DNA from: a virus
Taxonomy: Duplodnaviria; Heunggongvirae; Uroviricota; Caudoviricetes
IMG/VR virus record: IMGVR_UViG_3300031760_000012
Span: 33,387 to 97,386 of that record
DNA length: 64,000 bases
Direction: 5' to 3' (one strand)
Shown here: in pieces, positions 11,474 through 50,540 of the stretch
How the letters are laid out: each line of letters begins with the position of its first letter
How positions within the stretch are numbered: position 1 is the first letter of the stretch
Position numbers and translations under genes: made by a program
The notes under the pieces: model-generated
Told to the model about the DNA's origin: nothing
The model's input: the letters and a program-made list of their open reading frames with translations, nothing else
The model's database searches: none

Positions 11474-12805
11474 GTGATGACGATTAGTAGATCGCATATT
11501 GCGTATGGAGCAAAAGACGATATACGGGGAGCGATCGCCGCGAAGAAGATCCCGAAGAATTGTCTCATCGTGACAAAGATCACAGATCCATACGAACAAG
11601 CAGAATTATTTTATTATGACAAAGAGAAAAACTTGCGCGCCCTCTCGACGAAGGAAGTGTTCAGCTCGCTGGAAGCAGCGACTGCATGGGTCAACTCGTA
11701 CTATTGCGTAGGCCGCCAGATCGTGGTTCTTGTGGACGACGAGTGGCACCTGTATACGGTCGACGCTGAGAACAATCTGGTACTGCGCGACGGAAGCGAC
11801 AAAGTCGCGGATATCGCCCCAGAGGACCCGTCCATTCATGTTGGCGGCACGAGCACATCCCCTACTATATCCGTCGTGATCGACCCGGTACTGGCGAACG
11901 GACTTGACATTGGCGAAGACGGAATCTTGCTGATGCCTGCGACACAGCAGACTGCAGGCGCGATTTCAGCAGCCGACAAGACGAAGCTGGACGGGATCGA
12001 GGCAGGCGCGGAAGTAAACACGATTCGCGACATCGGCACCGGAGCAACCGAGGGTACAATCTCTGTTAACGGCGTCGACGTGCGCGTCAAAGGACTCGGC
12101 TCAGCAGCGTTCACAGATTCGAACGCGTACCAGCCAATGGGAACTGGTATGAACTACGCTGTCGTCGAGGAGCTCCCTGACGTTGGTCGCACAGATACGA
12201 TTTATCTGAAGGCGAACAAGGGCGAGGAAAACAACGTATTCGACGAGTTCTTATACGTTAACGGCGTCTTCGAGTTAGTCGGAACTACCAAGACGGACCT
12301 GTCCGACTATTATACTCGTGGCGAAGCCGACAGAAAGATCAATTCAGTGGTCACAGAGGCGCTTATCCCAAAGGCGAACTCTGCTGATCTTGCCAAGGTC
12401 GCGACAACCGGATCGTACAAAGACCTGTCTGACAAGCCGAAGTTTCCGATCATCGTTAACTGTAAACAGAAGAGCGATGGTTATTACTACGCGGAGACTC
12501 CGTTCGGAACTGCGAAGAGCTTGCTCAAACAGGGACTGCAGGTCGCGATATACTGGCCGCCAACGAATATGGTGTTCCAGTGTACGATTTACAGCGACAG
12601 CACCAACGTCATGTACCTTGGCGTAATGGACAACACCACGTATCGTTTCTTACAGTGGACTGGCAGAAACGATCGTGTTGAAGAATATTCAAAAGCAACA
12701 TTTATCTCTAAAGAATACCTACAACTTTATTACACAAAAGAAGAGGTGGACGATATGTTTGCTCAAATCGAAGAAGATGAAATTACAAGAATGTGGGGTG
12801 TCTAA
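11474..12805 (+). CDS. tail-fiber-like protein
   Basis: 443 aa. Contains KTKLDGIEAGAEVN-type fiber repeat motifs and Gly/Thr-rich segments. Sits directly upstream of the giant fiber gene. Confidence 0.55.
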   Translation: MMTISRSHIAYGAKDDIRGAIAAKKIPKNCLIVTKITDPYEQAELFYYDKEKNLRALSTKEVFSSLEAATAWVNSYYCVGRQIVVLVDDEWHLYTVDAENNLVLRDGSDKVADIAPEDPSIHVGGTSTSPTISVVIDPVLANGLDIGEDGILLMPATQQTAGAISAADKTKLDGIEAGAEVNTIRDIGTGATEGTISVNGVDVRVKGLGSAAFTDSNAYQPMGTGMNYAVVEELPDVGRTDTIYLKANKGEENNVFDEFLYVNGVFELVGTTKTDLSDYYTRGEADRKINSVVTEALIPKANSADLAKVATTGSYKDLSDKPKFPIIVNCKQKSDGYYYAETPFGTAKSLLKQGLQVAIYWPPTNMVFQCTIYSDSTNVMYLGVMDNTTYRFLQWTGRNDRVEEYSKATFISKEYLQLYYTKEEVDDMFAQIEEDEITRMWGV

Positions 12806-15800
12806 TGAGCATAAAGTATTTAGGAGAATCAGGCACACGAACCCTCATCAACCAGCTTAAGTCTCGCCTTGCCGAATTTTACGACAAGACAGAGACCGAC
12901 ACAGCGATCGAGGTCGCACTTTCAGATGAGATCGCGCCACTGGCTGAGACGATTACGACGCTCAACCAGAACAGTGAGACATACTGTCAGGCACTGGAAG
13001 TTGACGAGGACGGTCTCGTGTGGCTGCTCAACAATGGACAAAGAATAGAAGGGCCATACGGACCTTTCGCTGGTGGCGGCGGAGGCGGCGGTGGCTCGTC
13101 AGTAGGCGGCGCAACAATGAGAGTCTCAAACACGACTGGATGGCTCTCGAATACCGTCGTCAAAGATGCCGAGTGCAAAGTCAGCATGACATGGTCTTCT
13201 ATTGAAGATGACATGCCTACAGGCGATGGTACTGTAAAGGTTTCCGTAAACGGAGTCTTGAAATCGTCGCGAAACGTAGCACAGGGTGCATTCGAAATCG
13301 ACGTAGCTCCTTATCTCGCCACCGGTACGAACATGGTACAGGTTGCTCTGTCTGACGTATACGGAACGAATCGTAAAATCAATTACACGATTACCGTAAT
13401 CGAGCTTTCGATCAGTTCTACGTTCGACACAACGGCAACTTTCTCCGGGAAGATCACCTTCCCTTACACTCCTGTCGGCGCGGCGACGAAGACAATTCAC
13501 TTCATCCTTGACGGGACGGAGCTTGACACACTGACAACGTCTGCGTCGAACAGACAATTATCATACGTTATTCCACAACAGTCTCACGGCGTTCACGTGT
13601 TCGAGTGCTACTTCGACGCTACCATCAACGGTCAGATCGTAACTTCGAACAGACTGTACTACGAGATCACATGCATCAATGAGGAAAGCTCCTCTACGAT
13701 CATCTCATCCTCGTTCAACCAGTCAACCGTGACGCAGTATACGACTCTGAACATTCCGTACAGAGTATATACACCGAGTTCGTCTACGTCACCTGTGACG
13801 ATCAAGGTTAACGGCGAGACAAAAGCTGAACTTACAGTCGACCGTTCAGAGCAGATCTTTACTTATAGACCGTCAACCCCTGGCACGCTTACAATCCTCT
13901 TTACATGTGGCGACGTTAATAAGACGATCACGCTTACAGTAGAGGAAGCCGAGGCTGACGTTCACGCTGAAACGCAGGATCTTGCTCTGTATCTGAACGC
14001 GATCAGCCGTAGTAACGCAGAAGCCGATCCATCGATCTGGCAGTACAACAACATCAAGGCGACATTGACGGGATTCAACTACATTATCGACGGCTGGCAG
14101 CAGGATGACGAAGGTATCGACGTTCTCAGAGTCGACGGAGATGCGCGTGTCACAATTCCGTACAATCTGTTCGGAACTGACTTTAAGTCGACCGGTAAGA
14201 CAATCGAGATCGAGTTCGCAACTCGTCAGGTATCAGACTACACAGCGACTATTATCTCTTGTTTCTCTGACGGCATTGGTCTTCAGATCACACCGCAGAT
14301 GGTAACATTCAGCGGCGCACAGACATCGACGAATACTCTTTACAAAGAGAACGAGCATATCACACTGTCAATCGTTGTTGAGAAGCAGAACGAGAACAGA
14401 CTGATCCTTGTTTATATCAACGGCATCATGTCAAGGGCGATCCAGTATGCGTCTGGTGAGCGTTTCTCACAGCTGAGTCCGGTTGGCATTAGTATCGGAT
14501 CTGACGACTGTGGTGTCGACATTTACAAGATCAGAGTCTACGACAATAGTTTGTCAAGAGAACAGATTCTGGACAACTGGATTGCGGATACTCAGGATGG
14601 TCCGACAATGCTCGAACGTTATAACCACAACGACGTGTACGACGAGTACGGTAGTGTATCGATCAACAAGCTGCCGAAGGATCTTCCATATATGATCCTT
14701 GAGTGCGACGAACTTCCGCAGTACAAAGGTGACAAGAAGAAGACTGTCAAAGGTTCGTTTACTGATCCAGTCGACTCATCAATGGATTTTACTTTTGATG
14801 GCTGCGAAATGGACGTACAGGGTACATCATCCGCTCCATACTACAGGAAGAATTTCGATATGAAATTTAAAGCCTGCGGATTCGACACAGCGTCTGGTAA
14901 TGTGCCGGTATACGCTCTCAGAAAAGGATCAATTCCGTTCAATCGTTTCGTCCTTAAGGCTGACGTTGCGTCATCCGAGTCAACAAACAACACTGGTCTG
15001 ACAATGTTTTATAACGATACATGTCCTTACAAGACCCGTGAGATGCTGGCCAACTCCAAGGTGCGTCATGGTATTGAAGGTATTCCAATTGTTCTTTATT
15101 GGCACGATACCGTCAACGACAAAACGTATTTTTGGGGCAAGTACAATTTCAACCTTCCTAAGCGTGCAAATACTCCGCTGGGCTATTCCGGTAATATGCA
15201 GTCTTGGGAATGGCAAAGAAACAACTCACCGAATGTTAAGTTCCAGGCGTCAGACTTCACGACTGAAATCTGGGATGAAGAAGCCGGTCAGTATAAGCCT
15301 TTATGGTACGACGACTTTGAGGCGCGATTCCCTGAAGATACATGGCGCGACTATACTCAGCTCAAGGAAATCCTCGACTGGGTAGTATCGACCGACAGGA
15401 CCAAGGCGACGAATGAAACGCTTAGTTCTCCTGTATCATACACTCTGGATAATACGCTCACGCTTGTGAACTATTCAGACGACACGAGTTATACAGTAAC
15501 CGATGCCGCCAACAACAAGAAGACGATTACGTTCACAAAAGATACTCCAGCTTATCGACTCACGAGGTTCAAAGCGGAATGCGGTGATCGCTTCGAAATG
15601 CAGTCTGCGTATTTCTATTACCTTTTCACAGAGCTGTTCTTAATGATCGACTCTCGTGCAAAGAATATGTTCATCGGCTTCAAGGGATCCGACGTTACGT
15701 TGCAAGGATCATCGCTTACGAGAAAGGCTGTGTTCGAGCCATACGATATGGATACCGCGATTGGTACTAACAACTCCGGTGTTCTGATGTTCGGATACTA

Positions 15801-18800
15801 CCTCGAAGATACTGACCATGTATCCAGCATTATCTCTGGCGGCGACGAAGGCGGAACTGATGCGCCTGTATTCAACGCGCAGGATTCTGTATTCTGGATG
15901 AACCTTAGAGACTCGTCAAGACCTGAACTTATGAGCATGTATAGAACGCTGAGAAGTGGTGCATGGTCATATTCGATCGTTGAGACAATGTTCGAAAATC
16001 ATCAGGCGAAGTGGCCAGAGGCGATCTTCAACGAGGACGCGTATGCGAAGTATTTAACTCCGCTTGTAGAAGCCGTTACGGTAGACGAAGAAACTGGCAA
16101 GCTCATCAAGACAGACCGTTACCTGACTATGCTTCAGGGATCTAAAACCGAGCAGCGTAAATGGTGGCTCAACGGGCGCTTCCGCTATATCGACTCCAAG
16201 TACAACACAGGCGATGCCGCCAACAAGTATATCTATATGCGTCTGTTCAATAACGGAACGCTGACGATTACCCCGGCGATCGACATGTACGTAGGAGCGA
16301 GCTTTGGCGGTGGAAGTACTCCGAACTTGAAGAGAACAACTGCGAATACTCCAGTTTCGTTCCCGTATCAGATGGACACGGGCGTAACCGAAATGGAAAC
16401 ATGGGTCTACTCCGCCGACTTGATCACAGACGTTGGCGATCTGGCTCCGCTATTCCCGAACGAACTGGACTTCAGTAGGGCGACCCGTATCAAGAATCTG
16501 AAGATCGGCGACGCATCACCGACCTACAGCAATGCGAACTTTAAGACACTGGACGTGCGGAACTCTGCCCTGCTCGAGACAATCGACGTACGGAACTGTC
16601 CGCAGCTGACGATTACGGTTAATCTCGAAGGATCGCCGAAGCTCAAAGAAGCGTACTTCGACGGAACTGCGATTACAGGTGTTGATCTGGTCGATGGCGG
16701 CGTGCTCGAGACGCTGCACCTGCCTGCGACGATTACGACGCTGACGCTGATGAACCAGAACAAGCTGACAGATCTGCAGATCGACTCTTACTCGAACGTG
16801 TCAAGGCTCATGCTGAAGGATATGAATCAGTCTGTTCTGAATCCACTGACCGTGCTTAGGCAGATCAGACCGAACGCACAGGTTTATATCAGCGGTCTGG
16901 AGCTGACACTGGCAACTGCTGCTGAGATCGAGGAGTTCTTGGATTTGCTCGACACGATGCAGGGTGTTGACCGTGAGAAGGGCACCGACGGATCGTGGGT
17001 TTACCATACGTATGATACTGCTCAGGTAGCTGGTGTTATTACGACAGGTTCGCTCACTGGCGCACAGGTTGCTTCGTACAACGCGAGATATCCGTACCTC
17101 GAGATCAACGCTGAGCATATTGAGTCAACGCTGACATATATGAATTTCGACGGGACGCAGACAATAAAGACTGTTCGGTGCTTGGATGGCGTGCCACAGG
17201 AAAGCGGTCCATCAGGTCCTACGAGGGAATCCACAGCACAGTACAACTTCACCTTTGTCGGCTGGAGCCGTGACAAGAACGCGGAAATTGCGCAGAGCGA
17301 CGCCGCGTCAAACGTCAAGGGCGACCGTACGATCTACGCTGCGTACACAAAGGCAATCAGATCGTATACAGTTACTTGGAAGAATCAGGGTACGACACTT
17401 AAGACAGACACTGTTGAGTATGGTGTTACTCCTTCATACTCAGGTCCGACCCCGACATATCAGGGACAGACATCGACTGGCTGGGACCCTGAGATTAGCC
17501 CGGTGACTGGCAATATTACGTATAACGCGACGTATCTGCCAAGATATACTGTTACATATTACAACGACACGACTGTAATAAAGACTGAGCAGGTTACGCA
17601 AGGCGCGAACGGTGTGCCACCTACTGAAACTCCGACGAAGCCTGGAAGCAATCCGGGAGATTACGAGTTCATGGGCTGGAATCCACTACCGAATAACGTA
17701 CAGGCGAACATGTCTGTATATGCACAGTACAAAGATAATCGGTCGGTTGTTGTTAAGTATTTGACGAATAGTCTTGATAAGTATGAAACGACATCGAATA
17801 CAACCCTGGCAGCAAACGCGTTCTATAATATGTCTTCGCTTACAGAAGTTTCTGGCCCGTTGACAACAATTGATTCATCAGCGTTCTCAAGCGCATCGAA
17901 TCTTACAAAAGTTGATCTGACCGGAACAAGCCCTGTGACGATTTCGACCACAGCGTTGGCAAGTAAGGCGAAATTGGACGCGTTGTTTATTCGCAGCACA
18001 ACTATGTCGTCTATGTCGAGCACGAGCAATCTCGCAGGCACAAAGATCTCTGCAGGAGCAGGAGCTATATATGTTCCGAGCGGATTGGTCGCGTCGTACA
18101 AAGCTGATTCAATATGGAAGAATTATTGCATTGCCTCGATTGACGATTATCCTATTACAGATTTCTCGACGATTACTGATTCGTGGGAGCAAATTTTCGC
18201 GAATGAGACTAATGGGTCGTATGCGAACAAGTATCACGTTGGTGACACAAAGAAGATCACCATTAACGGTGTCGAGGATTACATGCAGATAGTTGCCATG
18301 GAAGCAGATGATCTCGCTGATGGATCAGGCAAGGCAAAGATTACGTGGTTGAGCAAGGGATTATTCACGACTCATAAAATGAATGACACAGGTACCAACG
18401 CAAACGGCTGGGCTCAATCCGGTATGCGTACGTGGCTCAGAGAAACGATACTGCCTACGCTGGATTCAACAATTCAGAGCAATATCAAAGAAGTAACAAA
18501 GACGTATTATGATAAGACGACCACTTCGACATTATCAATCACAGATACGGTGTGGATCCCATCAGCTAGAGAAATATACGGAGGCACATCATACGAATCT
18601 GCAGGTTGTGATTATACTTCTCTGTTTAACTCAGATTCAGCACGCATTAAATATGACACATCAGGTACTGCCAGCGGTTGGTGGCTGCGTTCTGCTGATA
18701 GCAACAACGACACTTACTTCCGTTTTGTGCGTAGCTACGGTGGCGTGGGCAACGGCGGTGCCGGCTATACTTATGGCGTAGCCCTCGGCTTCTCGACTTG

Positions 18801-18801
18801 A
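12805..18801 (+). CDS. giant DGR target protein 1 (about 1998 aa), receptor-binding/tail-fiber type
   Basis: Features in order: poly-Gly linker (GGGGGGGGS); leucine-rich repeats (aa about 1240-1330 and BspA-like LRR near the C-terminus); three Listeria/Bacteroides-type (Flg_new-like) repeats; a C-terminal domain ...WWLRSA...GVALGFST whose last about 130 nt form VR1. The ATG at 12805 overlaps the upstream stop (TAATG); the track start at 12793 is a GTG. Confidence 0.8.
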   Translation: MSIKYLGESGTRTLINQLKSRLAEFYDKTETDTAIEVALSDEIAPLAETITTLNQNSETYCQALEVDEDGLVWLLNNGQRIEGPYGPFAGGGGGGGGSSVGGATMRVSNTTGWLSNTVVKDAECKVSMTWSSIEDDMPTGDGTVKVSVNGVLKSSRNVAQGAFEIDVAPYLATGTNMVQVALSDVYGTNRKINYTITVIELSISSTFDTTATFSGKITFPYTPVGAATKTIHFILDGTELDTLTTSASNRQLSYVIPQQSHGVHVFECYFDATINGQIVTSNRLYYEITCINEESSSTIISSSFNQSTVTQYTTLNIPYRVYTPSSSTSPVTIKVNGETKAELTVDRSEQIFTYRPSTPGTLTILFTCGDVNKTITLTVEEAEADVHAETQDLALYLNAISRSNAEADPSIWQYNNIKATLTGFNYIIDGWQQDDEGIDVLRVDGDARVTIPYNLFGTDFKSTGKTIEIEFATRQVSDYTATIISCFSDGIGLQITPQMVTFSGAQTSTNTLYKENEHITLSIVVEKQNENRLILVYINGIMSRAIQYASGERFSQLSPVGISIGSDDCGVDIYKIRVYDNSLSREQILDNWIADTQDGPTMLERYNHNDVYDEYGSVSINKLPKDLPYMILECDELPQYKGDKKKTVKGSFTDPVDSSMDFTFDGCEMDVQGTSSAPYYRKNFDMKFKACGFDTASGNVPVYALRKGSIPFNRFVLKADVASSESTNNTGLTMFYNDTCPYKTREMLANSKVRHGIEGIPIVLYWHDTVNDKTYFWGKYNFNLPKRANTPLGYSGNMQSWEWQRNNSPNVKFQASDFTTEIWDEEAGQYKPLWYDDFEARFPEDTWRDYTQLKEILDWVVSTDRTKATNETLSSPVSYTLDNTLTLVNYSDDTSYTVTDAANNKKTITFTKDTPAYRLTRFKAECGDRFEMQSAYFYYLFTELFLMIDSRAKNMFIGFKGSDVTLQGSSLTRKAVFEPYDMDTAIGTNNSGVLMFGYYLEDTDHVSSIISGGDEGGTDAPVFNAQDSVFWMNLRDSSRPELMSMYRTLRSGAWSYSIVETMFENHQAKWPEAIFNEDAYAKYLTPLVEAVTVDEETGKLIKTDRYLTMLQGSKTEQRKWWLNGRFRYIDSKYNTGDAANKYIYMRLFNNGTLTITPAIDMYVGASFGGGSTPNLKRTTANTPVSFPYQMDTGVTEMETWVYSADLITDVGDLAPLFPNELDFSRATRIKNLKIGDASPTYSNANFKTLDVRNSALLETIDVRNCPQLTITVNLEGSPKLKEAYFDGTAITGVDLVDGGVLETLHLPATITTLTLMNQNKLTDLQIDSYSNVSRLMLKDMNQSVLNPLTVLRQIRPNAQVYISGLELTLATAAEIEEFLDLLDTMQGVDREKGTDGSWVYHTYDTAQVAGVITTGSLTGAQVASYNARYPYLEINAEHIESTLTYMNFDGTQTIKTVRCLDGVPQESGPSGPTRESTAQYNFTFVGWSRDKNAEIAQSDAASNVKGDRTIYAAYTKAIRSYTVTWKNQGTTLKTDTVEYGVTPSYSGPTPTYQGQTSTGWDPEISPVTGNITYNATYLPRYTVTYYNDTTVIKTEQVTQGANGVPPTETPTKPGSNPGDYEFMGWNPLPNNVQANMSVYAQYKDNRSVVVKYLTNSLDKYETTSNTTLAANAFYNMSSLTEVSGPLTTIDSSAFSSASNLTKVDLTGTSPVTISTTALASKAKLDALFIRSTTMSSMSSTSNLAGTKISAGAGAIYVPSGLVASYKADSIWKNYCIASIDDYPITDFSTITDSWEQIFANETNGSYANKYHVGDTKKITINGVEDYMQIVAMEADDLADGSGKAKITWLSKGLFTTHKMNDTGTNANGWAQSGMRTWLRETILPTLDSTIQSNIKEVTKTYYDKTTTSTLSITDTVWIPSAREIYGGTSYESAGCDYTSLFNSDSARIKYDTSGTASGWWLRSADSNNDTYFRFVRSYGGVGNGGAGYTYGVALGFST
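18667..18796 (+). repeat. DGR variable region VR1 (3' end of target gene 1)
   Basis: Aligns over about 128 nt with the TR at 19271-19398. All 24 internal differences fall at TR adenines (AAC/AAT codons become GGC/TAC/CGT/AGC/GGT and so on). Confidence 0.85.
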
Positions 18802-18819
18802 TCTAAATATCAATCAACC

Positions 18820-18839
18820 TCGCCGCCTGCGTGCGGCGA
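18820..18839 (+). promoter_or_regulatory. GC-rich hairpin downstream of VR1, a DGR target-recognition/IMH-associated stem-loop
   Basis: TCGCCGC-ctgcgt-GCGGCGA, a perfect 7-bp stem about 23 nt after VR1. An identical element follows VR2 and none follows the TR. Confidence 0.6.
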
Positions 18840-18855
18840 ACACGTTGTAAAGGGG

Positions 18856-19263
18856 ATGATTATTATTTCAGTAGTTAAAAGCAAACGTGGCGTATCGAAA
18901 ATGGAGTTCGTCCATAACGCAGGAAAGTTAGCTGCGTTTACAATTAAAAGATGCGTAAATTTTCCGAAGAGATACACATTTTTCATAAGCGACCGGCTTG
19001 CTAATATGGCGTCCGAAGTATATACCAACGTAATACGTGCAAATAATATCTATGCGAAGAATCAGCACGACGCACAAATAAGAATAGATTTTCTTGTCGA
19101 CGCTCGCGGATTACTTTACGGTCTTATTTCTCAAATCGGAATCGCACGAGAGCTATTCACAATAAACGACAATGTAATGGAAGAGTGGATGACTTTGATA
19201 AACACTGAAATATCTCTTATAAACGGCGTGATCAAAAATGATAGAAGAAAGTTTGGGTTATAA
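18856..19263 (+). CDS. avd: accessory variability determinant (Avd-like four-helix-bundle protein)
   Basis: 135-aa basic protein between the VR and TR. The segment FPKRYTFFISDRLANMASEVYTNVIRAN resembles the FPKxE..S.LRRAA.SI..NIAEG core of the Avd/S23-IVP family. Position is the canonical target-avd-TR-RT order. An alternative start exists at 18901. Confidence 0.6.
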   Translation: MIIISVVKSKRGVSKMEFVHNAGKLAAFTIKRCVNFPKRYTFFISDRLANMASEVYTNVIRANNIYAKNQHDAQIRIDFLVDARGLLYGLISQIGIARELFTINDNVMEEWMTLINTEISLINGVIKNDRRKFGL

Positions 19264-19270
19264 ACTGTAT

Positions 19271-19398
19271 ACTGCCAACAATTGGTGGCTGCGTTCTGCT
19301 AATAGCAACAACGACACTAACTTCCGTAATGTGAATAACAACGGTAACGTGAACAACAACAATGCCAACAATACTAATGGCGTAGCCCTCGGATTCTC
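19271..19398 (+). repeat. DGR template repeat (TR)
   Basis: Non-coding copy of VR1/VR2, extremely adenine-rich (runs of AAC/AAT). It lies between avd and the RT and lacks the downstream hairpin. Confidence 0.85.
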
Positions 19399-19571
19399 TC
19401 AAGGCAGACAGAGTAACCATACGGCGAAATCAGTCCATGAAGAGAAGGAGTTTATAACCCTCCCGTATGGGTAAATGAATGCGCTGACGAGACAGAGTGG
19501 ACGCTGCTTGCATGGCAATATTTTATTGTTTCATACTCGGTCTCTACGAGTAGCGTACGAAAGGAATTTGT

Positions 19572-20672
19572 ATGACAAGCGAACAAAGGCATGCTGCAAG
19601 ACGAAAGCGACGTGAAGAAAAACGCCGCCAAAAGAAAGCTGAATTTATGTTGGATTACGACGATTTCGACAAGGTGTTTACATTTGACCATCTGTACAAG
19701 TCGTATGAAAAATGTCGCAGAAGCGTATCATGGAAATCGAGCGTGCAGAATTATATAGCTCAAGCTCCGCTAAAAGTTAATAACACGTTGAAAGAACTGC
19801 GAGAAGGTAAATTTAGAACAGACGGATTTTACGAATTCGACATATACGAGCGCGGCAAAATCAGACATATTAAATCTGTTACGATGCGCGAACGCGTTGT
19901 TCAAAGATGTTTGTGTGATTACGCCCTCACGCCTGTGTTATCAAGGACGTTCATATATGATAACGGAGCGTCGCTACCAGACAAAGGATACCATTTTTCA
20001 ATGAACAGAATTCAGGAGCACCTGAGAGAATGTGGTCGAGATGGATATATTTTACTTTTTGATTTTTCGCAATTCTTCGATAGCATTCCGCACGATATGG
20101 TAAAGGGCATTATCAGAAACGAATTTACTGATGAAAGGATTGTCGAGTTGTGCGACCATTTTGTCGACGTATTCGGCGACGTTGGACTAGGACTCGGATC
20201 TCAAATAAGCCAAATTCTCGCTCTGGCGGCAGTGAATCGTTTGGATCATTTTGTAAAAGAACACCTTAGAATACGTGGTTATGGAAGATATATGGATGAT
20301 GGTTATCTGATTCACAAAGATAAAGAGTATTTAAAATATTGTTTAAAAGAGATAAAAGCACTGTGTTCGGAACTTGGCATTGTGCTTAATCCAAAGAAAA
20401 CTCAAATCGTAAAAATTAGTCACGGATTCACATGGCTGAAATGTCGGTTCATTGTTACTGATAGTGGCAAGGTGATAAAGAAAATCTGCAAGAATTCGGT
20501 AACACGAGAGAGGCGTAAAATCAAAAAACTTTCAGCTATGCAACAACAAGGAATTGTCAGTATCGAGGATGTGACCGCATCATACCAGAGCTGGCGTGGA
20601 TATGCATCACACTTCGACGCATATCGTACAATCCAAAACATGGATAAATTATTTAAGGAGGAATTCTTATGA
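19572..20672 (+). CDS. DGR reverse transcriptase
   Basis: 366 aa. RT motifs present, including YMDD (RYMDDGYL) and the DGR-characteristic motif-4 variant LGLGSQISQ ([IL]GxxxSQ instead of QGxxxSP). RBS AAAGGAA. Located 170 nt downstream of the TR. Confidence 0.9.
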   Translation: MTSEQRHAARRKRREEKRRQKKAEFMLDYDDFDKVFTFDHLYKSYEKCRRSVSWKSSVQNYIAQAPLKVNNTLKELREGKFRTDGFYEFDIYERGKIRHIKSVTMRERVVQRCLCDYALTPVLSRTFIYDNGASLPDKGYHFSMNRIQEHLRECGRDGYILLFDFSQFFDSIPHDMVKGIIRNEFTDERIVELCDHFVDVFGDVGLGLGSQISQILALAAVNRLDHFVKEHLRIRGYGRYMDDGYLIHKDKEYLKYCLKEIKALCSELGIVLNPKKTQIVKISHGFTWLKCRFIVTDSGKVIKKICKNSVTRERRKIKKLSAMQQQGIVSIEDVTASYQSWRGYASHFDAYRTIQNMDKLFKEEFL

Positions 20673-21082
20673 GTAACTATACAGCACTTTTGCATGATGG
20701 GACTGTAATTCCAATCGCAGACGGCACTTACACACTGAATTTGATTTGTAATTTCGAAACGAAGGAAGCGTTCGAGTCCACATGGGGAACAATGAATTCT
20801 GAGTCTCTGAAAACGATCGAAATTCAGCGTGGCGAAATCACGGTTGGAACTTTCTACAACTGCGTTCTGACGAATATCCAGATCGTAATTAATTCAAACA
20901 ACACATATACAGTTCACTTCTATCTGAAAGAAAACGACACTGACGAAGAACTTCCAAAGACGTATACTCAGCTTCTCGCTGAACGTATTGACGCACTTGA
21001 AGATGGTCAGGCAACTCAGGACGGAGCGATCGAAGATCTCGGATACGCAATCTCTGAGCTCGCAGAAGGAGGCGAAGCATAA
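20669..21082 (+). CDS. hypothetical protein, in the XkdW-like position
   Basis: 137-aa ORF overlapping the RT stop (ATGA); acidic C-terminus. Confidence 0.45.
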   Translation: MSNYTALLHDGTVIPIADGTYTLNLICNFETKEAFESTWGTMNSESLKTIEIQRGEITVGTFYNCVLTNIQIVINSNNTYTVHFYLKENDTDEELPKTYTQLLAERIDALEDGQATQDGAIEDLGYAISELAEGGEA

Positions 21083-21189
21083 TGGGAAGATTCTATGGTG
21101 AAAAAATCCTTGCAGGACAGATGACGATTTATCAGGTGCCGAAATACTGGCGTAAAAAGGTTGAAGACTGGCTTGCTGAAAATCAGTAA
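21082..21189 (+). CDS. small XkdX-like protein (35 aa); not in the ORF track
   Basis: ATG overlaps the upstream stop (TAATG). MGRFYGEKILAGQMTIYQVPKYWRKKVEDWLAENQ resembles the small XkdX family proteins that follow tail fiber genes in Firmicutes prophages. Confidence 0.35.
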   Translation: MGRFYGEKILAGQMTIYQVPKYWRKKVEDWLAENQ

Positions 21190-21249
21190 GTTCGATAATA
21201 CGGTGGCTGGGTTCATTGCTCAGCCACCACTGAACAGAAAGGATTAATT

Positions 21250-22272
21250 ATGGCAAATACAAGAGATACATTAGGAGATCAGGCTACTCTTGATGGGCTG
21301 GTTAATGGTACGCTAACGGAGCTTGAAGAAGACGGAGTCACATCTCTTCCGTCGTATGCGCTTCACAAAAACACTCATATCGAGACGCTGAAATTCCCGA
21401 ATGTTACAAGCATTTCCGGTAACGCATTTAACGGATGTTCTGCATTAAAACATCTGGTCCTCGGTAGTTCAACAAAGTGTACGTTGTCAGCAACATCAGC
21501 CTTTACTGGGACGCCGATCAGCATGACTAAAGGCGCGATTTATGTGCCAAAAGATCTTGTGAGTACTTACAAAGCTGACTCCAATTGGAAGAATTATTTT
21601 ATTACATCTGACGAAAATTATCCAACGAGCGAGTATTCGACAATCACTGATTCGTGGGCACAGATCGTCGCGGCTATCAGCGATGGGTCATACGCGACAA
21701 AGTATAATGTCGGCGACACAAAGGCGATTTCGATCAATGGCGTAGATGATTATATGGTTTTGATCGCAAAAGACACTGACGTTCTGGCGGATGGATCTGG
21801 GAATGCGAAAACGACGTGGCTGAGTAAAGGACTATTCGCAACGCACAACATGAATACGCAAAGTACAAACGCAAACGGCTGGGCTCAATCCGGCATGCGT
21901 ACGTGGCTCAGAGAAACAATACTTCCAACTTTAGACTCTACTATACGAAGTGGAATTAAGGAAGTAACAAAAACATACTACGACAAAACCACATCTTCTA
22001 CTCTATCGGTTTCAGACACAGTGTGGATCCCATCTGCTCGTGAGATGTTTGGCGGTACGTCATATGAAGATTCTGGCTGTGACTACACATCATTGTTCAA
22101 TTCAAATTCAGCTCGCATTAAATACAATACATCAGGATCTGCCGACAGTTGGTGGCTGCGTTCTGCTCATAGCAGCTACGACACTAACTTCCGTTATGTG
22201 CGTAGCAACGGTGGCGTGGACGACAGCGGTGCCAGCAGTACTCGTGGCGTAGCCCTCGGCTTCTCGATTTGA
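21250..22272 (+). CDS. DGR target protein 2 (340 aa), a short paralog of the C-terminal LRR + variable domain of target 1
   Basis: About 60 percent identical to the last roughly 330 aa of the 2002-aa protein (same BspA-like LRR, SDTVWIPSARE, WWLRSA, GVALGF). RBS AAAGGA. The 3' end carries VR2. Confidence 0.8.
   Translation: MANTRDTLGDQATLDGLVNGTLTELEEDGVTSLPSYALHKNTHIETLKFPNVTSISGNAFNGCSALKHLVLGSSTKCTLSATSAFTGTPISMTKGAIYVPKDLVSTYKADSNWKNYFITSDENYPTSEYSTITDSWAQIVAAISDGSYATKYNVGDTKAISINGVDDYMVLIAKDTDVLADGSGNAKTTWLSKGLFATHNMNTQSTNANGWAQSGMRTWLRETILPTLDSTIRSGIKEVTKTYYDKTTSSTLSVSDTVWIPSAREMFGGTSYEDSGCDYTSLFNSNSARIKYNTSGSADSWWLRSAHSSYDTNFRYVRSNGGVDDSGASSTRGVALGFSI
22137..22266 (+). repeat. DGR variable region VR2
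   Basis: Aligns with the TR; its 22 internal differences from the TR are all at TR adenines. Differs from VR1 at many of the same adenine-templated positions. Confidence 0.85.
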
Positions 22273-22290
22273 TCTATATACCACTAAATC

Positions 22291-22310
22291 TCGCCGCCTG
22301 CGTGCGGCGA
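22291..22310 (+). promoter_or_regulatory. GC-rich hairpin downstream of VR2 (identical to the one after VR1)
   Basis: TCGCCGCctgcgtGCGGCGA located 25 nt after the VR2 stop codon. Confidence 0.6.
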
Positions 22311-22506
22311 ACCAGAACCCCTTTGGTTTAGCGTGCATGTCTGGACGCTTGTAATATTGGTGACGTATAAACCTTCCAGAATATTCCCATGGTACAGTCG
22401 CTATAGTCCACTCTTTTACGATAGAAAGGAGTTAGTTATGAGTAACTCAGATCCGCCATTTAATTAAATCGCGCAGTTATCGTCATAGAACAGAAAAGAG
22501 AATAAT

Positions 22507-22893
22507 ATGGGATACAGATATTATAACCCAAATCCTTCCGGCAGAATGGTTGGCGATTGTGTAATACGCGCAATATCAAAAGCAACAAACAGAAGCTGGG
22601 AGGAGATCTATGTAAAGGTCGCCATTCAGGGATTGATGATGCATGATATGCCTTCATCGAATTCCGTCTGGGGATCTTTTTTATATAATCAAAATTTTCA
22701 CAGGTATTCAATCCCAGACATGTGTCCGGATTGTTACACCGTCGCCGAGTTTGCCGAAGATAACCCAATAGGTACATTCGTCTTAGCGACCGGCACACAC
22801 GTCGTAACAGTCCAAGATGGAGATTATTACGACGCATGGGACAGTGGATCAGAAATACCAGCATATTTTTGGACTCGAAAGGAGAATAATTAA
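22507..22893 (+). CDS. hypothetical protein (possible Cys/His/Asp papain-like fold)
   Basis: 128 aa; GDCVIRAIS ... GTHVVTVQDGDYYDAWDSG gives a Cys...His...Asp order. No confident family assignment. Confidence 0.45.
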   Translation: MGYRYYNPNPSGRMVGDCVIRAISKATNRSWEEIYVKVAIQGLMMHDMPSSNSVWGSFLYNQNFHRYSIPDMCPDCYTVAEFAEDNPIGTFVLATGTHVVTVQDGDYYDAWDSGSEIPAYFWTRKENN

Positions 22894-23426
22894 TGGCTTA
22901 TAACAATGGATTTCCAATAGGCTATCAACCGATTCAGTCGGTTCAGCCAATGCAGCCTGTCCAGCAGGCTCAGCCAAACGTCAACATGCAACAGCAACAG
23001 ATGTATCAACAGCCAGCTATCCAAACTCAGCAAATGCCACAGCCGCAAAGCAGCGACCATGGAATCATCTGGGTTCAAGGTGATGCAGGCGCGAAGTCGT
23101 ACCTCGTTGCACCGAACCAGAGTGTAATGCTGATGGACAGCGAGCAAAACTGTTTTTACATCAAATCTGCTGACGCCTCTGGCATGCCGCTGCCGCTTCG
23201 GACGTTCGACTATACCGAACGCGTGCAAGCGACCGAGATGCCGCCAGAGAGAGAAGTTGACATGTCGGCGTACATAACTAAGGACGAATACGAGTCCCGC
23301 GCGGCGAACTTCGCATCAACGATCGACGGATTATCCGCGCAACTCTCAGAGTCACTCAAGAAGATCAACGATCTCTCAGCGCAGCTCGAATCCATGTCAG
23401 ATTATTCGAATAAGAAAAGGAAGTGA
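22893..23426 (+). CDS. hypothetical protein with Q/P-rich N-terminus
   Basis: 177-aa ORF; ATGA overlap with the upstream gene. Confidence 0.5.
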   Translation: MAYNNGFPIGYQPIQSVQPMQPVQQAQPNVNMQQQQMYQQPAIQTQQMPQPQSSDHGIIWVQGDAGAKSYLVAPNQSVMLMDSEQNCFYIKSADASGMPLPLRTFDYTERVQATEMPPEREVDMSAYITKDEYESRAANFASTIDGLSAQLSESLKKINDLSAQLESMSDYSNKKRK

Positions 23427-23665
23427 AGTTAGTTATGGCTAATCAATTATTCAACATGCTCGGCGGAGGCATGCCTCAAATGCCGGGACCATTTGGCAAC
23501 ATCATGAATATGCTCGGAGCGCTCACGCAGTTCAGGCAGAACTTTCAGGGCAACCCACAGCAACAGGTCCAGCAGATGCTGAACTCTGGTCAGATCACGC
23601 AGGAACAGTTCAATCAGGCTGCGCAGATGGCGACCCAGATCCAAAATATGCTTAATGGAAGATAA
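23423..23665 (+). CDS. hypothetical small Q/N/M-rich protein
   Basis: 80-aa ORF; ATGA overlap with the upstream gene. An alternative start exists at 23436. Confidence 0.4.
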   Translation: MKLVMANQLFNMLGGGMPQMPGPFGNIMNMLGALTQFRQNFQGNPQQQVQQMLNSGQITQEQFNQAAQMATQIQNMLNGR

Positions 23666-23734
23666 GGGGCACTCACGTATATGAGTGTTTTTGTATGATT
23701 AGATATTTCCATATTTTAACAAAAGGAGAACATT

Positions 23735-24610
23735 ATGGCATTAACATCTTCTGAAATGAGCCCTGCGGATATCGCGGCAGTAACAAACAACAATGGAAAC
23801 AACGGAATGTGGGGAGATTCGTTTAGTTGGTGGATTATCATCCTCTTCCTTTTCGCCTTTGTCGGCAACGGAAGCTGGGGCTTTGGCGGCGGCAACAACG
23901 GTGGCGCTGTTCCGTACATGATGGCAACGAACACAAACGCAGACGTACAGCGTGGCTTCGACCAGGCATCTGTCATGGGTGCGCTTGGTGATCTGAACGT
24001 AGGTCAGGTTAACGGCTTCGCGAATGTACAGCAGGCGATGTGCTCTGGCTTCAACGGCGTAAATCAGGCTGTCAATAACGGATTTGCACAAGCTGAGATT
24101 TCCGCCAACGCGAGACAGATGGCTGATATGCAGCAGAGCTTCGCGTCCCAGACTGCTCTTACGCAGGGACTGAACGCACTGCAGGGTCAGCTCGCTATGA
24201 TTGGAAGCACTCAGGCGATGAACTCCGCCGATCTGAAATACACCATCGCGACTGAAGCATGCGCAGATCGTGCCGCTGTTACTGACGCACTTAGGGCAGT
24301 CAACGACAATGTCGATGCCAAGGCTCAGATGATTATTGACAAGATGTGCCAGTCCGAGCTCGACGCTGAGAGACGTGAGAACGCCAACCTCAGATCTCAG
24401 ATCCAGCTCATGCAGCTGACAAGCACGCAGGAAAATCAAACTCAGACACTCCTTGCCGGACAAAACGCAGGCGTCGCTTCTATTCTGGCGGGTCAGGCTC
24501 AGCGCGCCGCAGAAGTAGAACAGTACGTCAACCCTACAGCAGTTCCTGCATACATCGTGCAGAATCCTAACTGCTGCACTCCTCAGTACGGAACTGGATG
24601 CGGATGCTAA
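23735..24610 (+). CDS. hypothetical membrane-anchored protein
   Basis: 291 aa; one TM helix (WWIIILFLFAFVG), a G/N-rich region and a Cys-rich C-terminus (NCCTPQYGTGCGC). Confidence 0.5.
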   Translation: MALTSSEMSPADIAAVTNNNGNNGMWGDSFSWWIIILFLFAFVGNGSWGFGGGNNGGAVPYMMATNTNADVQRGFDQASVMGALGDLNVGQVNGFANVQQAMCSGFNGVNQAVNNGFAQAEISANARQMADMQQSFASQTALTQGLNALQGQLAMIGSTQAMNSADLKYTIATEACADRAAVTDALRAVNDNVDAKAQMIIDKMCQSELDAERRENANLRSQIQLMQLTSTQENQTQTLLAGQNAGVASILAGQAQRAAEVEQYVNPTAVPAYIVQNPNCCTPQYGTGCGC

Positions 24611-36755: not shown

Positions 36756-37727
36756 TTACAGCTCGGTGTAAGCACTATGCTTTACACGGTCGTTTGTCTC
36801 GGCATATTTGCCATCGTTAAATCTCCTATAGTCTGCGGTCAGATATCCTGTAACTCGCCTGAGCTGTAATATGTTTTCGCTTCCGCACTCAGGACATCGG
36901 TCGTTAAACTCTCCCTGATATCCACAATCGAGACACGAGTCTATAGGAAAATTAAATGCAAGGTATGGAATATCGAGTTCTTTAAACGCATAGTCTATAA
37001 TATCTTCGACAGCTTTCGTATTGTTTACAAATGTTGAGTCTAGTTCGACATATGTGATGCAACCAGACTTCGGATACTTCGTGAAAGGAGCTTCACATTC
37101 CAGCTTTTCAAAGATGGATACTTCTTCCCATACAGGAACATGGTGAGAGTTTGTCAGATACTCTCTGTCTGTTACATTAGGAATAGATCCGTACTGTTCA
37201 TATAATTTGTTCCTCGCTGTCATACACAAACTCTCAGCAGGAGTCGCGTATGCCGCTCCATTCAGATTATTTCTTTCGCTAAACTCAGCTGCGAACTCTG
37301 CGATTCTTCTGACGACCGCCAGGGCGAAATCATGAATGTCTTTGTTGTGGACATGATTCTCTCCGAACAGCGCCTGACACATTTCTGCGATGCCGATATA
37401 CCCAAAGGCGAAACTGTTATGTTTCAGAGCATCGTAAACAGAATCTTTACATTTGTCGGCGTCAGATATTGTTCCATTCTGATACATAAACGGTGCCGCT
37501 TCAGCAGGTTGCTGTTTCATAATCTCAAAGCGCTCTAGATGCGCCTTTTCAACGAGCTTCAATGTTCTTTCGAGTTCATTCCAGAATCCGTCTAGATCTG
37601 GTTCTTTGCGCTTACCTAAACAGATGCCATATTCTATTCCGAGCTTTGGCAGAATAATCGTGATCGGGTTGTTGTTGCCGCGACCGACTCTACGATATCC
37701 GAGTCCGTTGCGATCATATCCGATCAT
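36756..37727 (-). CDS. nrdD: anaerobic ribonucleoside-triphosphate reductase, exon 3 (C-terminal part with zinc ribbon and glycyl-radical motif)
   Basis: NNNPITIILPKLG..., the CLDCGYQGEF..CPECG zinc ribbon, and the C-terminal RVTGYL glycyl-radical loop. Confidence 0.75.
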   Translation of the reverse strand: MIGYDRNGLGYRRVGRGNNNPITIILPKLGIEYGICLGKRKEPDLDGFWNELERTLKLVEKAHLERFEIMKQQPAEAAPFMYQNGTISDADKCKDSVYDALKHNSFAFGYIGIAEMCQALFGENHVHNKDIHDFALAVVRRIAEFAAEFSERNNLNGAAYATPAESLCMTARNKLYEQYGSIPNVTDREYLTNSHHVPVWEEVSIFEKLECEAPFTKYPKSGCITYVELDSTFVNNTKAVEDIIDYAFKELDIPYLAFNFPIDSCLDCGYQGEFNDRCPECGSENILQLRRVTGYLTADYRRFNDGKYAETNDRVKHSAYTEL

Positions 37728-50386: not shown

Positions 50387-50461
50387 TGGCACGGCGTAGT
50401 GGAGTCGAACCACTACTTTCTGGGTCAAAGCCAGACGGACTAACCGTTATCCGAACGCCGT
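50387..50461 (-). tRNA. tRNA-Gln (anticodon UUG), CCA encoded
   Basis: Manual fold: acceptor ACGGCGU/ACGCCGU, D-stem GGAU/GUCC, anticodon stem UCUGG/CCAGA with loop CUUUGAC, T-arm AGUGG-UUCGACU-CCACU, discriminator G, CCA; 75 nt. Confidence 0.8.
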
Positions 50462-50464
50462 TAG

Positions 50465-50540
50465 TGGCATACCCTGCAGGGCTCGAACCTGCGACACCCG
50501 GTTTTGGAGACCGGCGCTCTCCCAACTGAGCTAAGGGTAC
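50465..50540 (-). tRNA. tRNA-Trp (anticodon CCA), CCA encoded
   Basis: Manual fold: acceptor GUACCCU/AGGGUAU, D-arm GCUC-AGUUGGGA-GAGC, anticodon stem CCGGU/ACCGG with loop CUCCAAA, T-arm GCAGG-UUCGAGC-CCUGC; 76 nt; 3 nt from tRNA-Gln. Confidence 0.8.

Follow-up and report, generated by a model that had tools for sequence, protein, structure and literature searches.

What could change one copy of a repeat at its adenines and leave every other base untouched? This question is raised by a stretch of 64,000 nt of viral DNA (hereafter the window), in which a template repeat (TR) is flanked by two variable repeats (VR1 and VR2). A first-pass annotation, made from the letters alone, had attributed their differences to the mutagenic retrohoming of a diversity-generating retroelement (DGR) and not to ordinary divergence, and every independent line that we tested supported this reading. 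We put at about 95% the probability that the locus is a complete, recently active DGR within the tail module of a tailed phage that is uncultivated and probably infects bacteria of the gut or rumen Clostridia. The features on which we base this reading are collected in Table 1.

Table 1. Features of the DGR locus, in coordinates of the window
Feature	Coordinates	Strand	Details
Target gene 1	12793..18801	+	2002-aa tail-fibre-like protein; basis: ORF, Pfam
VR1 (variable repeat)	18668..18794	+	last ~42 codons of target 1
IMH-like 3' end of VR1	18775..18795	+	GGCGTAGCCCTCGGCTTCTCG
GC-rich inverted repeat, copy 1	18820..18839	+	TCGCCGC-CTGCGT-GCGGCGA, 25 nt after VR1
avd-like accessory gene	18856..19263	+	135 aa, pI 9.8; PHROG 'Avd protein of DGR' E=6.7e-11
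TR (template repeat)	19272..19398	+	127 nt, intergenic; basis: repeat alignment
IMH*-like 3' end of TR	19379..19399	+	GGCGTAGCCCTCGGATTCTCT
Duplex, template-side strand (predicted)	19394..19401	+	UUCUCUCA, directly 3' of A19393
Rfam RT-2 RNA (RF03077)	19399..19578	+	104.9 bits vs gathering score 40
Duplex, spacer-side strand (predicted)	19438..19446	+	UGAAGAGAA, A19440 bulged, then conserved GGAG
DGR reverse transcriptase (RT)	19572..20672	+	366 aa; Pfam RVT_1 E=3.8e-18, PHROG RT E=4.5e-93
137-aa acidic ORF	20669..21082	+	overlaps RT stop codon
Target gene 2	21250..22272	+	340 aa; N-terminal LRR_5 region, C-terminal DUF6273 C-type-lectin-like domain
VR2 (variable repeat)	22139..22265	+	3' end of target 2
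GC-rich inverted repeat, copy 2	22291..22310	+	25 nt after VR2

Template and variable repeats

The three repeats align in a single ungapped register, with VR1 and VR2 offset from the TR by -604 and +2867, respectively; VR2, first located at 22137-22263, had been set 1 to 2 nt too low. The TR is composed of 42 A, 33 C, 28 T, and 24 G (n = 127 nt), and its differences from both VRs fall on the adenines. We found the same 24 mismatches in VR1 as counted originally (A to G, 16; A to T, 6; A to C, 2) and 21 in VR2 (A to G, 15; A to C, 4; A to T, 2), the 22 first reported for the latter being reached only when position 19271, outside the repeat proper, is included. The per-base tally of the first-pass annotation is reproduced, with all 45 mismatches (46/46 including 19271) at TR adenines and the 85 non-A positions unchanged in the VRs (85/85). 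The hypergeometric probability of such an all-adenine set is 7e-15 for VR1 and 1e-12 for VR2. The neutral expectation that had accompanied the tally, a quarter to a third of the differences at non-A bases, was mistaken, since non-A bases occupy 85 of the 127 positions and about two thirds would be expected. VR1 and VR2 differ from each other at 17 positions, all of them TR adenines and all at codon position 1 or 2.

As a control, we compared the 571 nt of paralogous coding sequence lying just upstream of both VRs, which are 71.5% identical. Their 163 differences are distributed over the four bases (A 48, T 47, G 34, C 34), 108 of them at codon position 3, a pattern significantly different from that of the VR mismatches (Fisher test, P = 8e-20). 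The repeats therefore show the adenine specificity of DGR template and variable repeats, next to a flank that diverges on all bases. Editing or deamination of the A-to-I type was ruled out because the TR adenines are replaced by G, T, and C.

Each VR ends two codons upstream of the stop codon of its target, and the TR contains 18 AAY codons; variable repeats at the 3' end of the target and a template rich in such codons are both expected of a DGR. Since 40 of the 42 adenines are at the first two positions of AAY-type codons, the changes recode surface residues of a C-type-lectin-like domain and cannot produce a stop codon. About 1.5e21 protein variants per target would be possible from the 18 AAY codons by themselves. 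A search of the window for further targets with the invariant 18-mer TGGTGGCTGCGTTCTGCT, allowing up to two mismatches, returned the three known copies only.

Two of the differences counted as adenine mutations are probably not products of mutagenesis. Position 19271 is T in the VR2 of both the window and L001, a phage contig 97% identical to the window over 13 kb, and therefore lies outside the repeat. At 19393, C is found in the four VRs examined (those of the window and L001), and the equivalent difference, A in the TR and C in the VR, recurs in 73 of 77 related TR/VR pairs; judged from these pairs, it is a fixed TR/VR discriminator across the clade. Selection or a biased RT also shapes the observed substitutions, since A to G makes up 62 of the 78 in the four VRs versus 50% across the clade.

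Targets, accessory genes, and repeat ends

Target gene 1 is located downstream of the tape measure, minor tail, and Dit genes. The last ~340 aa of its product, which include LRR_5 and DUF6273 matches (the latter at residues 1862-1995, E=1.8e-17), are paralogous to target 2, with 58% identity over 343 aa. Both proteins belong to DUF6273, scoring 64.2 (target 1) and 73.7 bits (target 2) against a Pfam cut-off of 23.5. Of the two folds that carry variable residues in DGR targets, C-type lectin or Ig, they have a C-type-lectin-like one. Tentaclins have an N-terminal C-type-lectin domain with the VR, followed by at least one Ig-like domain (Baykov et al. 2023, PMC10743442). We rejected membership of the targets in this group because the domain order is wrong: LRR_5 makes up the N-terminal part of both targets, DUF6273 and the VR come at the C-terminal end, and neither protein matched Ig or Fn3. 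It is probable that both hypervariable genes encode the receptor-binding proteins of the phage.

A full set of DGR genes and RNA lies between and around the repeats. Among solved structures, the RT is most closely related to bRT, from the DGR of the Bordetella phage (8ub7, E=7.5e-22), with group II RTs at about 1e-8, and it carries the motifs LGLGSQISQ (GSQISQ aligning to GSLTSQ of bRT) and YMDD. This ranking and the motifs assign the enzyme adjoining the TR to the DGR subclass. Between target 1 and the TR, where DGRs have an accessory protein, is the Avd-like gene. Its product scores below the cut-offs in its matches to Pfam 23S_rRNA_IVP (E=2e-3) and NCBIfam DivGenRetAVD (E=3.5e-4), shares 28% identity with the protein annotated as Avd in Roseburia phage Shimadzu (E=2e-10), and has homologues in 74 related loci; a comparison with solved structures gave no sequence match. 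For the 137-aa ORF that follows the RT gene, Pfam, PHROG, NCBIfam, and PADLOC gave nothing, and the related loci other than L001, where a copy is 99% identical, gave only one weak match; we did not count it as part of the DGR.

The 3' ends of the repeats distinguish the targets from the template. In the four VRs, a GC-rich segment, GGCGTAGCCCTCGG, is followed by two fixed differences from the TR, C for A at the equivalent of 19393 and G for T at that of 19399. The second is the non-A mismatch common to both VRs that had been taken as the 3' boundary; it does exist, but at 19399 and not at 19398. The VRs thus end in an IMH-like sequence and the TR in a non-identical, IMH*-like one, as in other DGRs, and the former may function as the IMH of Bordetella phage BPP-1 does (PMC5758913).

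Identical GC-rich hairpins, with 7-bp stems and the 6-nt loop CTGCGT, follow VR1 and VR2, and the one after VR1 is the same in L001. Folding found no such hairpin after the TR in the window, and across the clade they occur after 71 of 86 VRs versus 3 of 86 TRs. Inverted repeats of this kind are present in a minority of DGRs overall and are typical of phage DGRs. The paralogous targets share 42 of 51 positions from the end of the VR through the hairpin and 13 of 55 beyond it. The hairpins were rejected as intrinsic terminators, as they have no T-run or T-tail and were not called by a terminator scan. Their loop does not fit the GRNA tetraloop consensus of phage DGR hairpins (PMC3240598). The GC-rich inverted repeat is a candidate DNA hairpin or cruciform for target recognition, and, together with the IMH-like end, it is found at both VRs and absent at the TR.

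Recent turnover and alternative explanations

Between the window and L001, the TR does not differ at any of its 127 positions, whereas VR1 differs at 24 and VR2 at 16, the flanks showing about 0 to 1 differences per 100 nt. All 24 differences in VR1 and 15 of the 16 in VR2 are at TR-A positions (39/40, a single exception). The hairpins and the Avd-like protein sequence are also identical in both phages. Six further alleles of target 2 (P0001-P0006) differ mainly at the AAY-coded residues of the VR. The element was active recently, since its TR is unchanged while both VRs have been rediversified, and from these two assemblies and seven protein alleles we infer that the activity is ongoing. The invariant TR, the VRs changed between genomes that are 97% identical, and the VR-varying alleles of target 2 point indirectly to adenine-mutagenic, RT-dependent cDNA synthesis followed by retrohoming.

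The first-pass annotation had also proposed that each target was diversified separately. The changes in both VRs between the window and L001 support this claim, but the states of VR1 and VR2 in the window are not statistically independent, since of the 15 positions at which both are mutated, 13 have been changed to one and the same base (binomial P = 0.006, permutation P = 1.6e-4). L001 has no excess of substitutions common to its two VRs. Selection, VR-to-VR conversion, and chance are all possible sources of these common bases.

The same observations bear on whether the pattern could record past activity only, in a fossil DGR whose targets are no longer diversified. Static assemblies alone were examined, and long selection on old variants could produce both the spectrum dominated by A to G and the 13 of 15 common substitutions. 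We nevertheless consider a fossil quite improbable: all ORFs are intact, the near-identical relative retains the TR, hairpins, and Avd-like protein unchanged next to VRs that differ at 24 and 16 positions, and the seven alleles of target 2 differ mainly within the VR.

Still less probable are two explanations that dispense with a DGR. Divergence or gene conversion between paralogs, the adenine-specific look being due to codon usage or selection and no reverse transcription being involved, would suit the relationship between the targets and the selection that clearly acts on VR residues. It is, however, effectively refuted already by the adenine-only tally (0/45 differences at any of the 85 non-A positions; P about 1e-14 and 1e-12) and by the control, since the adjacent paralogous flank differs on all four bases; moreover, the template copy is intergenic and invariant, and an RT of the DGR type, an Avd-like protein, and a spacer RNA adjoin it. 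Equally negligible is the chance that the repeats have nothing to do with the RT and that this enzyme comes from a group II intron or from a defence system of the retron, DRT, or Abi type. There are weak matches to group II intron RT, Drt3a, and retron RT models, but none comes near its curated cut-off, the closest enzyme of solved structure is a DGR RT, and the surroundings are tail genes, together with an Avd-like protein and TR/VR repeats. Rfam recovered RT-2 as the only RNA, and neither retron msr/msd RNAs nor domains of intron RNA were found.

Spacer RNA, proposed priming, and related elements

The RT-2 RNA fills the spacer that separates the TR from the RT gene, matching model positions 1-222 and ending in the region of the RT start codon; a score above the threshold, a match to the full model, and an adjoining RT gene identify it as a member of this Rfam family. 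It also directly follows the TR in L001, L002, and Roseburia phage Shimadzu. Of the additional loci retrieved with a conserved 18-nt motif of RT-2, 81 have an adenine-mutagenized repeat, 100 nt or longer, immediately 5' of the RNA, with 92% of their 1319 TR/VR mismatches at A, and adenine-specific TR/VR pairs are present in eight of the ten loci found with the RT. To our knowledge, RT-2 had previously been described only as an RNA motif near RT genes, with no assigned role. Our literature collection, which is incomplete and hence no proof of novelty, contained no work linking it to DGRs.

Positions 19394-19401, at the 3' end of the TR, are complementary to 19438-19446 within the spacer. Across the clade, this duplex occurs in 29 covarying types, and its mean contiguous pairing is 6.8, versus 4.1 +/- 0.23 after permutation (0 of 5000 permutations reach the observed value). 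By analogy, A19446 is the predicted priming nucleotide, whose counterpart in BPP-1 is Sp A56 (bioRxiv 10.1101/2023.10.23.563531). In our incomplete collection, a search on conservation of the priming duplex returned that structural preprint only. Folded as a whole, the DGR RNA region (avd-3'/TR/spacer) reached a minimum free energy no better than that of shuffled sequences (z = -0.78), and the RNA model is built on Rfam and covariation only. Inspection by eye revealed no convincing pairing between the region upstream of the TR and the 3' spacer like that of the 'cPRT Stop' duplex of BPP-1.

The mechanism that we propose follows that of BPP-1 in its cis-priming, misincorporation by the RT, integration of the cDNA, and role in host-range switching. 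The avd gene, TR, RT-2-type spacer, and RT gene would be transcribed jointly, and the spacer RNA would fold so that AGAGAA (19441-19446) pairs with the 3' end of the TR (19394-19399). The RT and the Avd-like protein would then synthesize cDNA primed from the spacer, presumably at A19446, copying the TR toward its 5' end with misincorporation opposite adenines only. The mutagenized cDNA would replace the homologous VR at the 3' end of one or the other of the paralogous, probably receptor-binding genes, which would be marked as targets by the IMH-like GC-rich end (GGC versus GGA in the TR) and by the GC hairpin downstream. The TR itself would never be overwritten, because it lacks both a GGC-type IMH-like end and a hairpin.

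A broader proposal, to which we give slightly less than even odds, is that RT-2 is the cis-priming spacer RNA of a large DGR clade in phages of gut and rumen Bacillota. The 3' end of the TR would pair with a spacer segment ending in a conserved A followed by GG(AG), fixing initiation at a conserved GGA of the TR, and the C found there in nearly every VR (GGC) would amount to a one-base rule distinguishing donor from recipient. If this is true, A19446 is predicted as the priming nucleotide of this phage and A19393 or G19392 as the first template base; if it is also undescribed, the cis-priming model of BPP-1 would be extended by covariation to hundreds of uncultivated elements.

The prototype BPP-1 DGR (mtd-avd-TR-brt) shares with our locus the order of target, avd, TR, spacer, and RT, the adenine-specific TR-to-VR differences, the IMH/IMH* difference at the 3' end (PMC5758913), and a VR at the C terminus of a receptor-binding protein of C-type-lectin fold. 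It also resembles the window in the GC-rich inverted repeat after the VR only (PMC3240598), the duplex between the 3' end of the TR and the spacer beside a conserved A (bioRxiv 10.1101/2023.10.23.563531), and its RT, bRT being the best solved relative. However, BPP-1 has one target instead of two, and this is Mtd rather than a DUF6273 protein with an LRR N terminus; its RNA was placed in RT-10, not RT-2, by Weinberg et al. (PMC5737381); its GRNA tetraloop is close to the VR, whereas the 6-nt loop of the window is 25 nt away; and the host of our phage is probably a Gram-positive anaerobe.

Among cultured phages, the closest RT (49% identity, tblastn) is that of Roseburia phage Shimadzu (LR596903), which also has the order tail fibre-Avd-TR-RT, its RT gene being immediately preceded by the RT-2 RNA. 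A single target is annotated beside the Shimadzu cassette, in contrast to the long target and second, 340-aa target of the window, and Shimadzu is temperate and of myovirus type, with baseplate J and an integrase; no integrase was seen among the genes examined in the window phage. A megablast of 18000-22400 against 50,697 GenBank phage records gave no match. Elements in which a single TR supplies two VRs located in different structural genes are those of the gut phages nd4 and nd12 (Baykov et al. 2023, PMC10743442), with DUF6273 targets and RTs 32-39% identical to ours, and those of the Bacuni phages of Bacteroides uniformis (bioRxiv 10.1101/2020.10.09.334284). Like the window, these systems have DUF6273 or C-type-lectin-like variable domains and near-identical phages that differ almost only in their VRs. 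The targets of nd4 and nd12 have different topologies (tentaclins, with an N-terminal C-type-lectin domain and Ig domains), and those of Bacuni are DUF1566 pilin-tip-like proteins, unlike the window targets, which are paralogs with the same C-terminal LRR and C-type-lectin-like module.

The element is an ordinary member of the well-known DGR kind and conceptually adds nothing new to the field. What it settles is the identity of the three repeats, and it supplies probable receptor-binding genes useful for host-range prediction and for annotating an uncultivated Clostridia phage. It is also a clear case from nature in which two paralogous targets are served by one TR, and recent turnover is directly evident from a near-identical relative. 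If confirmed at the bench, the RT-2 RNA directly 3' of an adenine-mutagenized template in at least 81 phage loci, the covarying duplex in 29 variants, the GGA/GGC discriminator in 73 of 77 pairs, and the non-GRNA hairpin loops would be of interest to specialists, and they provide the exact nucleotides to mutate. The position of RT-2, the covariation of the duplex, the GGA/GGC rule, and the non-GRNA loops combined suggest that a distant and very abundant clade of gut phages has conserved the cis-priming architecture solved in BPP-1.

Adenine-specific differences among the repeats

The window contains a 127-nt repeat in three ungapped copies, as shown by direct reading of the sequence, a repeat finder and a per-base tally: a template repeat (TR) and the two variable repeats (VR1 and VR2) that end the target genes of the diversity-generating retroelement (DGR). 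The first-pass annotation had claimed that the TR differs from both VRs at adenines only, and this observation is confirmed, every mismatch falling on a TR adenine, for which the VR has G, T or C. For differences placed at random, such a pattern would have a probability of 7e-15 for VR1 and 1e-12 for VR2. The 17 differences between VR1 and VR2 also lie exclusively at TR adenines, all of them at codon positions 1 and 2.

As an internal control we used the 571 nt directly upstream of the VRs in the two paralogous target genes, which are 71.5% identical and whose 163 differences involve 48 A, 47 T, 34 G and 34 C, two thirds of them at codon position 3. Within the VRs, non-A positions are identical at 85 of 85 sites; set against the diverged flank, this indicates that the repeat has been homogenised from a common source except at adenine. 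Mutagenic retrohoming by a DGR, which had been preferred to ordinary divergence, is supported; the paralogous flanks differ on all four bases and the VRs on A only. All the DGR-defining features that can be tested in silico were found in this element. Some details of the annotation needed correction. The three ungapped copies exist, but VR2 had been placed 1-2 nt too low, and its 22 mismatches are reproduced only when position 19271 is included. The non-A difference that both VRs share at the boundary is indeed present, as T>G, although at 19399 instead of 19398, and the neutral expectation had been stated in reverse, as non-A bases should receive about two thirds of the differences under neutrality. 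Finally, not every A mismatch counted is a product of mutagenesis: one per VR (19393) is a fixed, clade-wide difference and hence non-stochastic.

Features of the DGR locus and of other parts of the window
Feature	Position	Strand	Details
Target gene 1	12793-18801	+	2002 aa, tail-fibre-like, ends in VR1
VR1	18668-18794	+	24 mismatches vs TR
GC hairpin after VR1	18820-18839	+	7-bp stem, 6-nt loop, exactly 25 nt 3' of VR1
Avd-like protein gene	18856-19263	+	135 aa, basic
TR	19272-19398	+	42 A, 33 C, 28 T, 24 G
Predicted TR:spacer duplex strands	19394-19401 and 19438-19446	+	complementarity, covariation
Spacer between TR and RT gene		+	180 nt
Reverse transcriptase (RT) gene	19572-20672	+	366 aa
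Acidic ORF	20669-21082	+	137 aa, pI 4.05; start codon overlaps RT stop codon (ATGA)
Target gene 2	21250-22272	+	340 aa, ends in VR2
VR2	22139-22265	+	21 mismatches vs TR; 22 with 19271 counted
GC hairpin after VR2	22291-22310	+	7-bp stem, 6-nt loop, same as VR1 copy, exactly 25 nt 3' of VR2
NrdD, C-terminal part	36756-37727	-	anaerobic ribonucleotide reductase
Class-V aminotransferase	44142-45305	-	
tRNA-Gln (UUG), tRNA-Trp (CCA)	50387-50461, 50465-50540	-	two adjacent genes
ORFs around group I intron	54367-55560, 53104-54084, 51143-52702	-	
Group I intron	54117-54421	-	Rfam, 92.7 bits; interrupts phage DNA polymerase III alpha gene

Genes of the cassette and their genomic setting

The window is part of a tailed-phage genome, with genes for a tape measure, a minor tail protein and a Dit-like protein upstream of the locus and a GH25 endolysin gene downstream of it. 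The best solved relative of the RT is bRT, the enzyme of the Bordetella phage BPP-1 DGR (8ub7, E=7.5e-22), compared with values of about 1e-8 to 1e-6 for group II intron and retron RTs, and the RT of the window carries the motifs GSQISQ (aligned with GSLTSQ of bRT) and YMDD. A defence-type identity was also considered, and the model matches were all far under the cut-offs. We assigned the protein encoded before the TR to the accessory protein Avd because of its match to the PHROG "Avd protein of DGR" (E=6.7e-11), its 28% identity to the annotated Avd of Roseburia phage Shimadzu, and its position and charge; matches to the Pfam and NCBIfam Avd models were sub-threshold. The acidic ORF is 99% conserved in L001 (a closely related IMG/VR contig), has no family match in four libraries, and gave one weak match only, at the corresponding position of the DGR locus L039.

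The comparison list for the target domain includes the DUF6273 N-terminal domain of the T. ramosa IgA peptidase (18.2), the C-terminal domain of Legionella Lcl (8.1), the Bacteroides pilin tip BACOVA_04982 (7.9), the Treponema variable protein TvpA (6.5) and animal C-type lectins (about 6.1). TvpA is a variable protein of the Treponema DGR (PDB entry name; PMC5758913), and BACOVA_04982 is a DGR target according to the Bacuni preprint (bioRxiv 10.1101/2020.10.09.334284). These fold matches agree with published work on gut phages in which DUF6273 is described as a C-lectin-like target domain of DGRs (PMC10743442). About 13% of DGRs are two-target cassettes (PMC5758913), and gut-phage DGRs with two DUF6273 targets have been described, as have near-identical phages differing only in their VRs (PMC10743442; bioRxiv 10.1101/2020.10.09.334284). 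The element itself would not surprise a specialist. Its particulars are the paralogous targets combining LRR and C-type-lectin-like domains, the length of the first target, a non-GRNA hairpin loop and a substitution spectrum rich in A>G (62 G, 11 T and 5 C in the four VRs of the window and L001, against 50% G, 33% T and 17% C in the clade).

Among cultured phages the closest relative is Roseburia phage Shimadzu, whose RT is 49% identical and whose gene order is the same. The nearest genomic matches are MAGs of Ruminococcus, Acetatifactor and Oscillospiraceae, a host range that the phage anaerobic NrdD and the GH25 endolysin fit. NrdD and the class-V aminotransferase are also consistent with an anaerobic host, and the latter may be an auxiliary metabolic gene. 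Elsewhere, the polymerase III alpha gene has its PHP and NTPase domains upstream of the intron and its finger and HHH domains in a separate downstream ORF, with a 326-aa ORF without a Pfam match between the two parts.

Target recognition and recent activity

The repeat ends in 21 GC-rich nt without variation, apart from two fixed differences between TR and VR: 19393, which is A in the TR and C in every VR (18789 in VR1, 22260 in VR2), and 19399 (T vs G). Both VRs are followed by a hairpin, and no comparable structure was found downstream of the TR. Identity between the paralogs is 42/51 from the end of the VR through the hairpin and 13/55 further on, so the duplicated unit ends with the hairpin. 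A role as terminators was rejected for these hairpins, which have no T-tail and gave no call in a terminator scan. In BPP-1, a hairpin/cruciform is needed for efficient retrohoming (PMC3240598; PMC5758913), and the 3'-end differences and hairpins of the window correspond to the IMH/IMH* pair (the 3' segments of the VR and TR ends) and hairpin/cruciform of that phage. Among related elements, a GC-rich hairpin (stem of at least 6 bp, within 70 nt) follows 71 of 86 VRs but only 3 of 86 TRs, with highly varied stem sequences. For target hairpins of phage DGRs, the consensus given in the literature is a GRNA tetraloop, unlike the loop in the window. Clade loops (related loci L012-L130) are mostly of 5-6 nt, such as CTTGT, CTTGC, CTGTGT and CTGCGT, and a minority are GNNA.

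L001 and the window are 97% identical over 13 kb. Their TRs show no differences in 127 nt, while VR1 differs at 24 positions and VR2 at 16, in flanks with only about 0-1 differences per 100 nt over several hundred bases on either side. TR-adenine positions account for 24/24 of these VR1 and 15/16 of these VR2 differences; the sole non-adenine TR/VR difference in the four VRs is a T>G in VR2 of L001 (L001 12566-12693) at the equivalent of TR 19336, the third base of an AAT codon. Changed VRs beside an invariant TR indicate that both targets have been rewritten after the split of the two phages. The databases contain six more alleles of target 2 (79-94% identity), which are hypervariable at the residues whose TR codon is AAY.

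The earlier claim that each target was diversified separately holds in that both VRs have changed relative to L001, but the VR states of the window are not independent draws: adenines changed in both VRs share the same base at 13 of 15 sites (binomial P = 0.006; permutation P = 1.6e-4). We put this excess down to selection, chance or occasional conversion from one VR to the other; population alleles show that these sites are not fixed, and our own count from the printed comparison table found no such excess in L001. Two other regions also differ from L001. Ordinary divergence outside the VRs has a hotspot at positions 17300-17700 in target gene 1, where 400 nt contain 56 differences, as against about 1-5 per 100 nt nearby; this suggests mosaic recombination in the fibre shaft. 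Just 3' of target 2, a 1.6-kb segment (22634-24207) is absent from L001, which is elsewhere 95-97% identical; this insertion/deletion polymorphism beside the cassette spans the end of ORF 22507-22893, the 177-aa ORF 22893-23426 and the start of ORF 23735-24610.

RT-2 RNA and a predicted priming duplex

The spacer that separates the TR from the RT gene matches the full model of the Rfam RNA RT-2 (RF03077; 19399-19578, 104.9 bits, gathering score 40), beginning one base past the TR and finishing at the RT start codon. RT-2 is likewise found 3' of the TR in L001, in the related locus L002 and in Roseburia phage Shimadzu. For Weinberg et al., RT-1 to RT-19 were simply motifs found close to RT genes; they linked RT-10 to BPP-1 and raised DGR membership of others as a speculation (PMC5737381). 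With a conserved RT-2 18-mer as the query we retrieved 119 viral loci. For 81 of these, the sequence immediately 5' of RT-2 recurs elsewhere in the locus over at least 100 nt, with 1220 of 1319 mismatches (92%) at A.

The cDNA of BPP-1 is primed from spacer A56, within a duplex of spacer 47-56 and TR 117-129 (bioRxiv 10.1101/2023.10.23.563531), and the pairing of the TR 3' end with the spacer in the window resembles this cis-priming duplex. Here, bases 19394-19399 (UUCUCU) are complementary to spacer positions 19441-19446 (AGAGAA), after which comes a conserved GGAG. In 76 non-identical loci with a TR ending in GGATT or TGATT, the spacer segment that ends at the conserved A, next to which stands GG(AG), pairs with the bases directly past the GGA of the TR, with a mean contiguous pairing of 6.9 for cognate and 3.9 for non-cognate combinations. 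RT-2-class DGRs contain 29 different covarying duplex sequences, and in a permutation test on 28 unique types none of 5000 permutations reached the observed value (6.82 vs 4.08 +/- 0.23). By analogy with BPP-1, A19446 is the predicted priming nucleotide.

Of 77 unique TR/VR pairs (L001-L130), 73 have GGC in the VR where the TR has GGA before TT, the differing base being 19393 in the window. As this A/C change is synonymous (Gly), its conservation lies at the nucleotide level, and we read 19393 as a putative fixed discriminator between donor and recipient, at or beside the initiation site and bordering the predicted duplex, rather than as a product of mutagenesis. We did not find a cis-priming reading of RT-2 in the searchable literature, whose coverage is incomplete. 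RT-2 may be the cis-priming RNA of a large clade of gut-phage DGRs, a predicted function that would involve a covarying duplex and a one-base discriminator between TR and VR.
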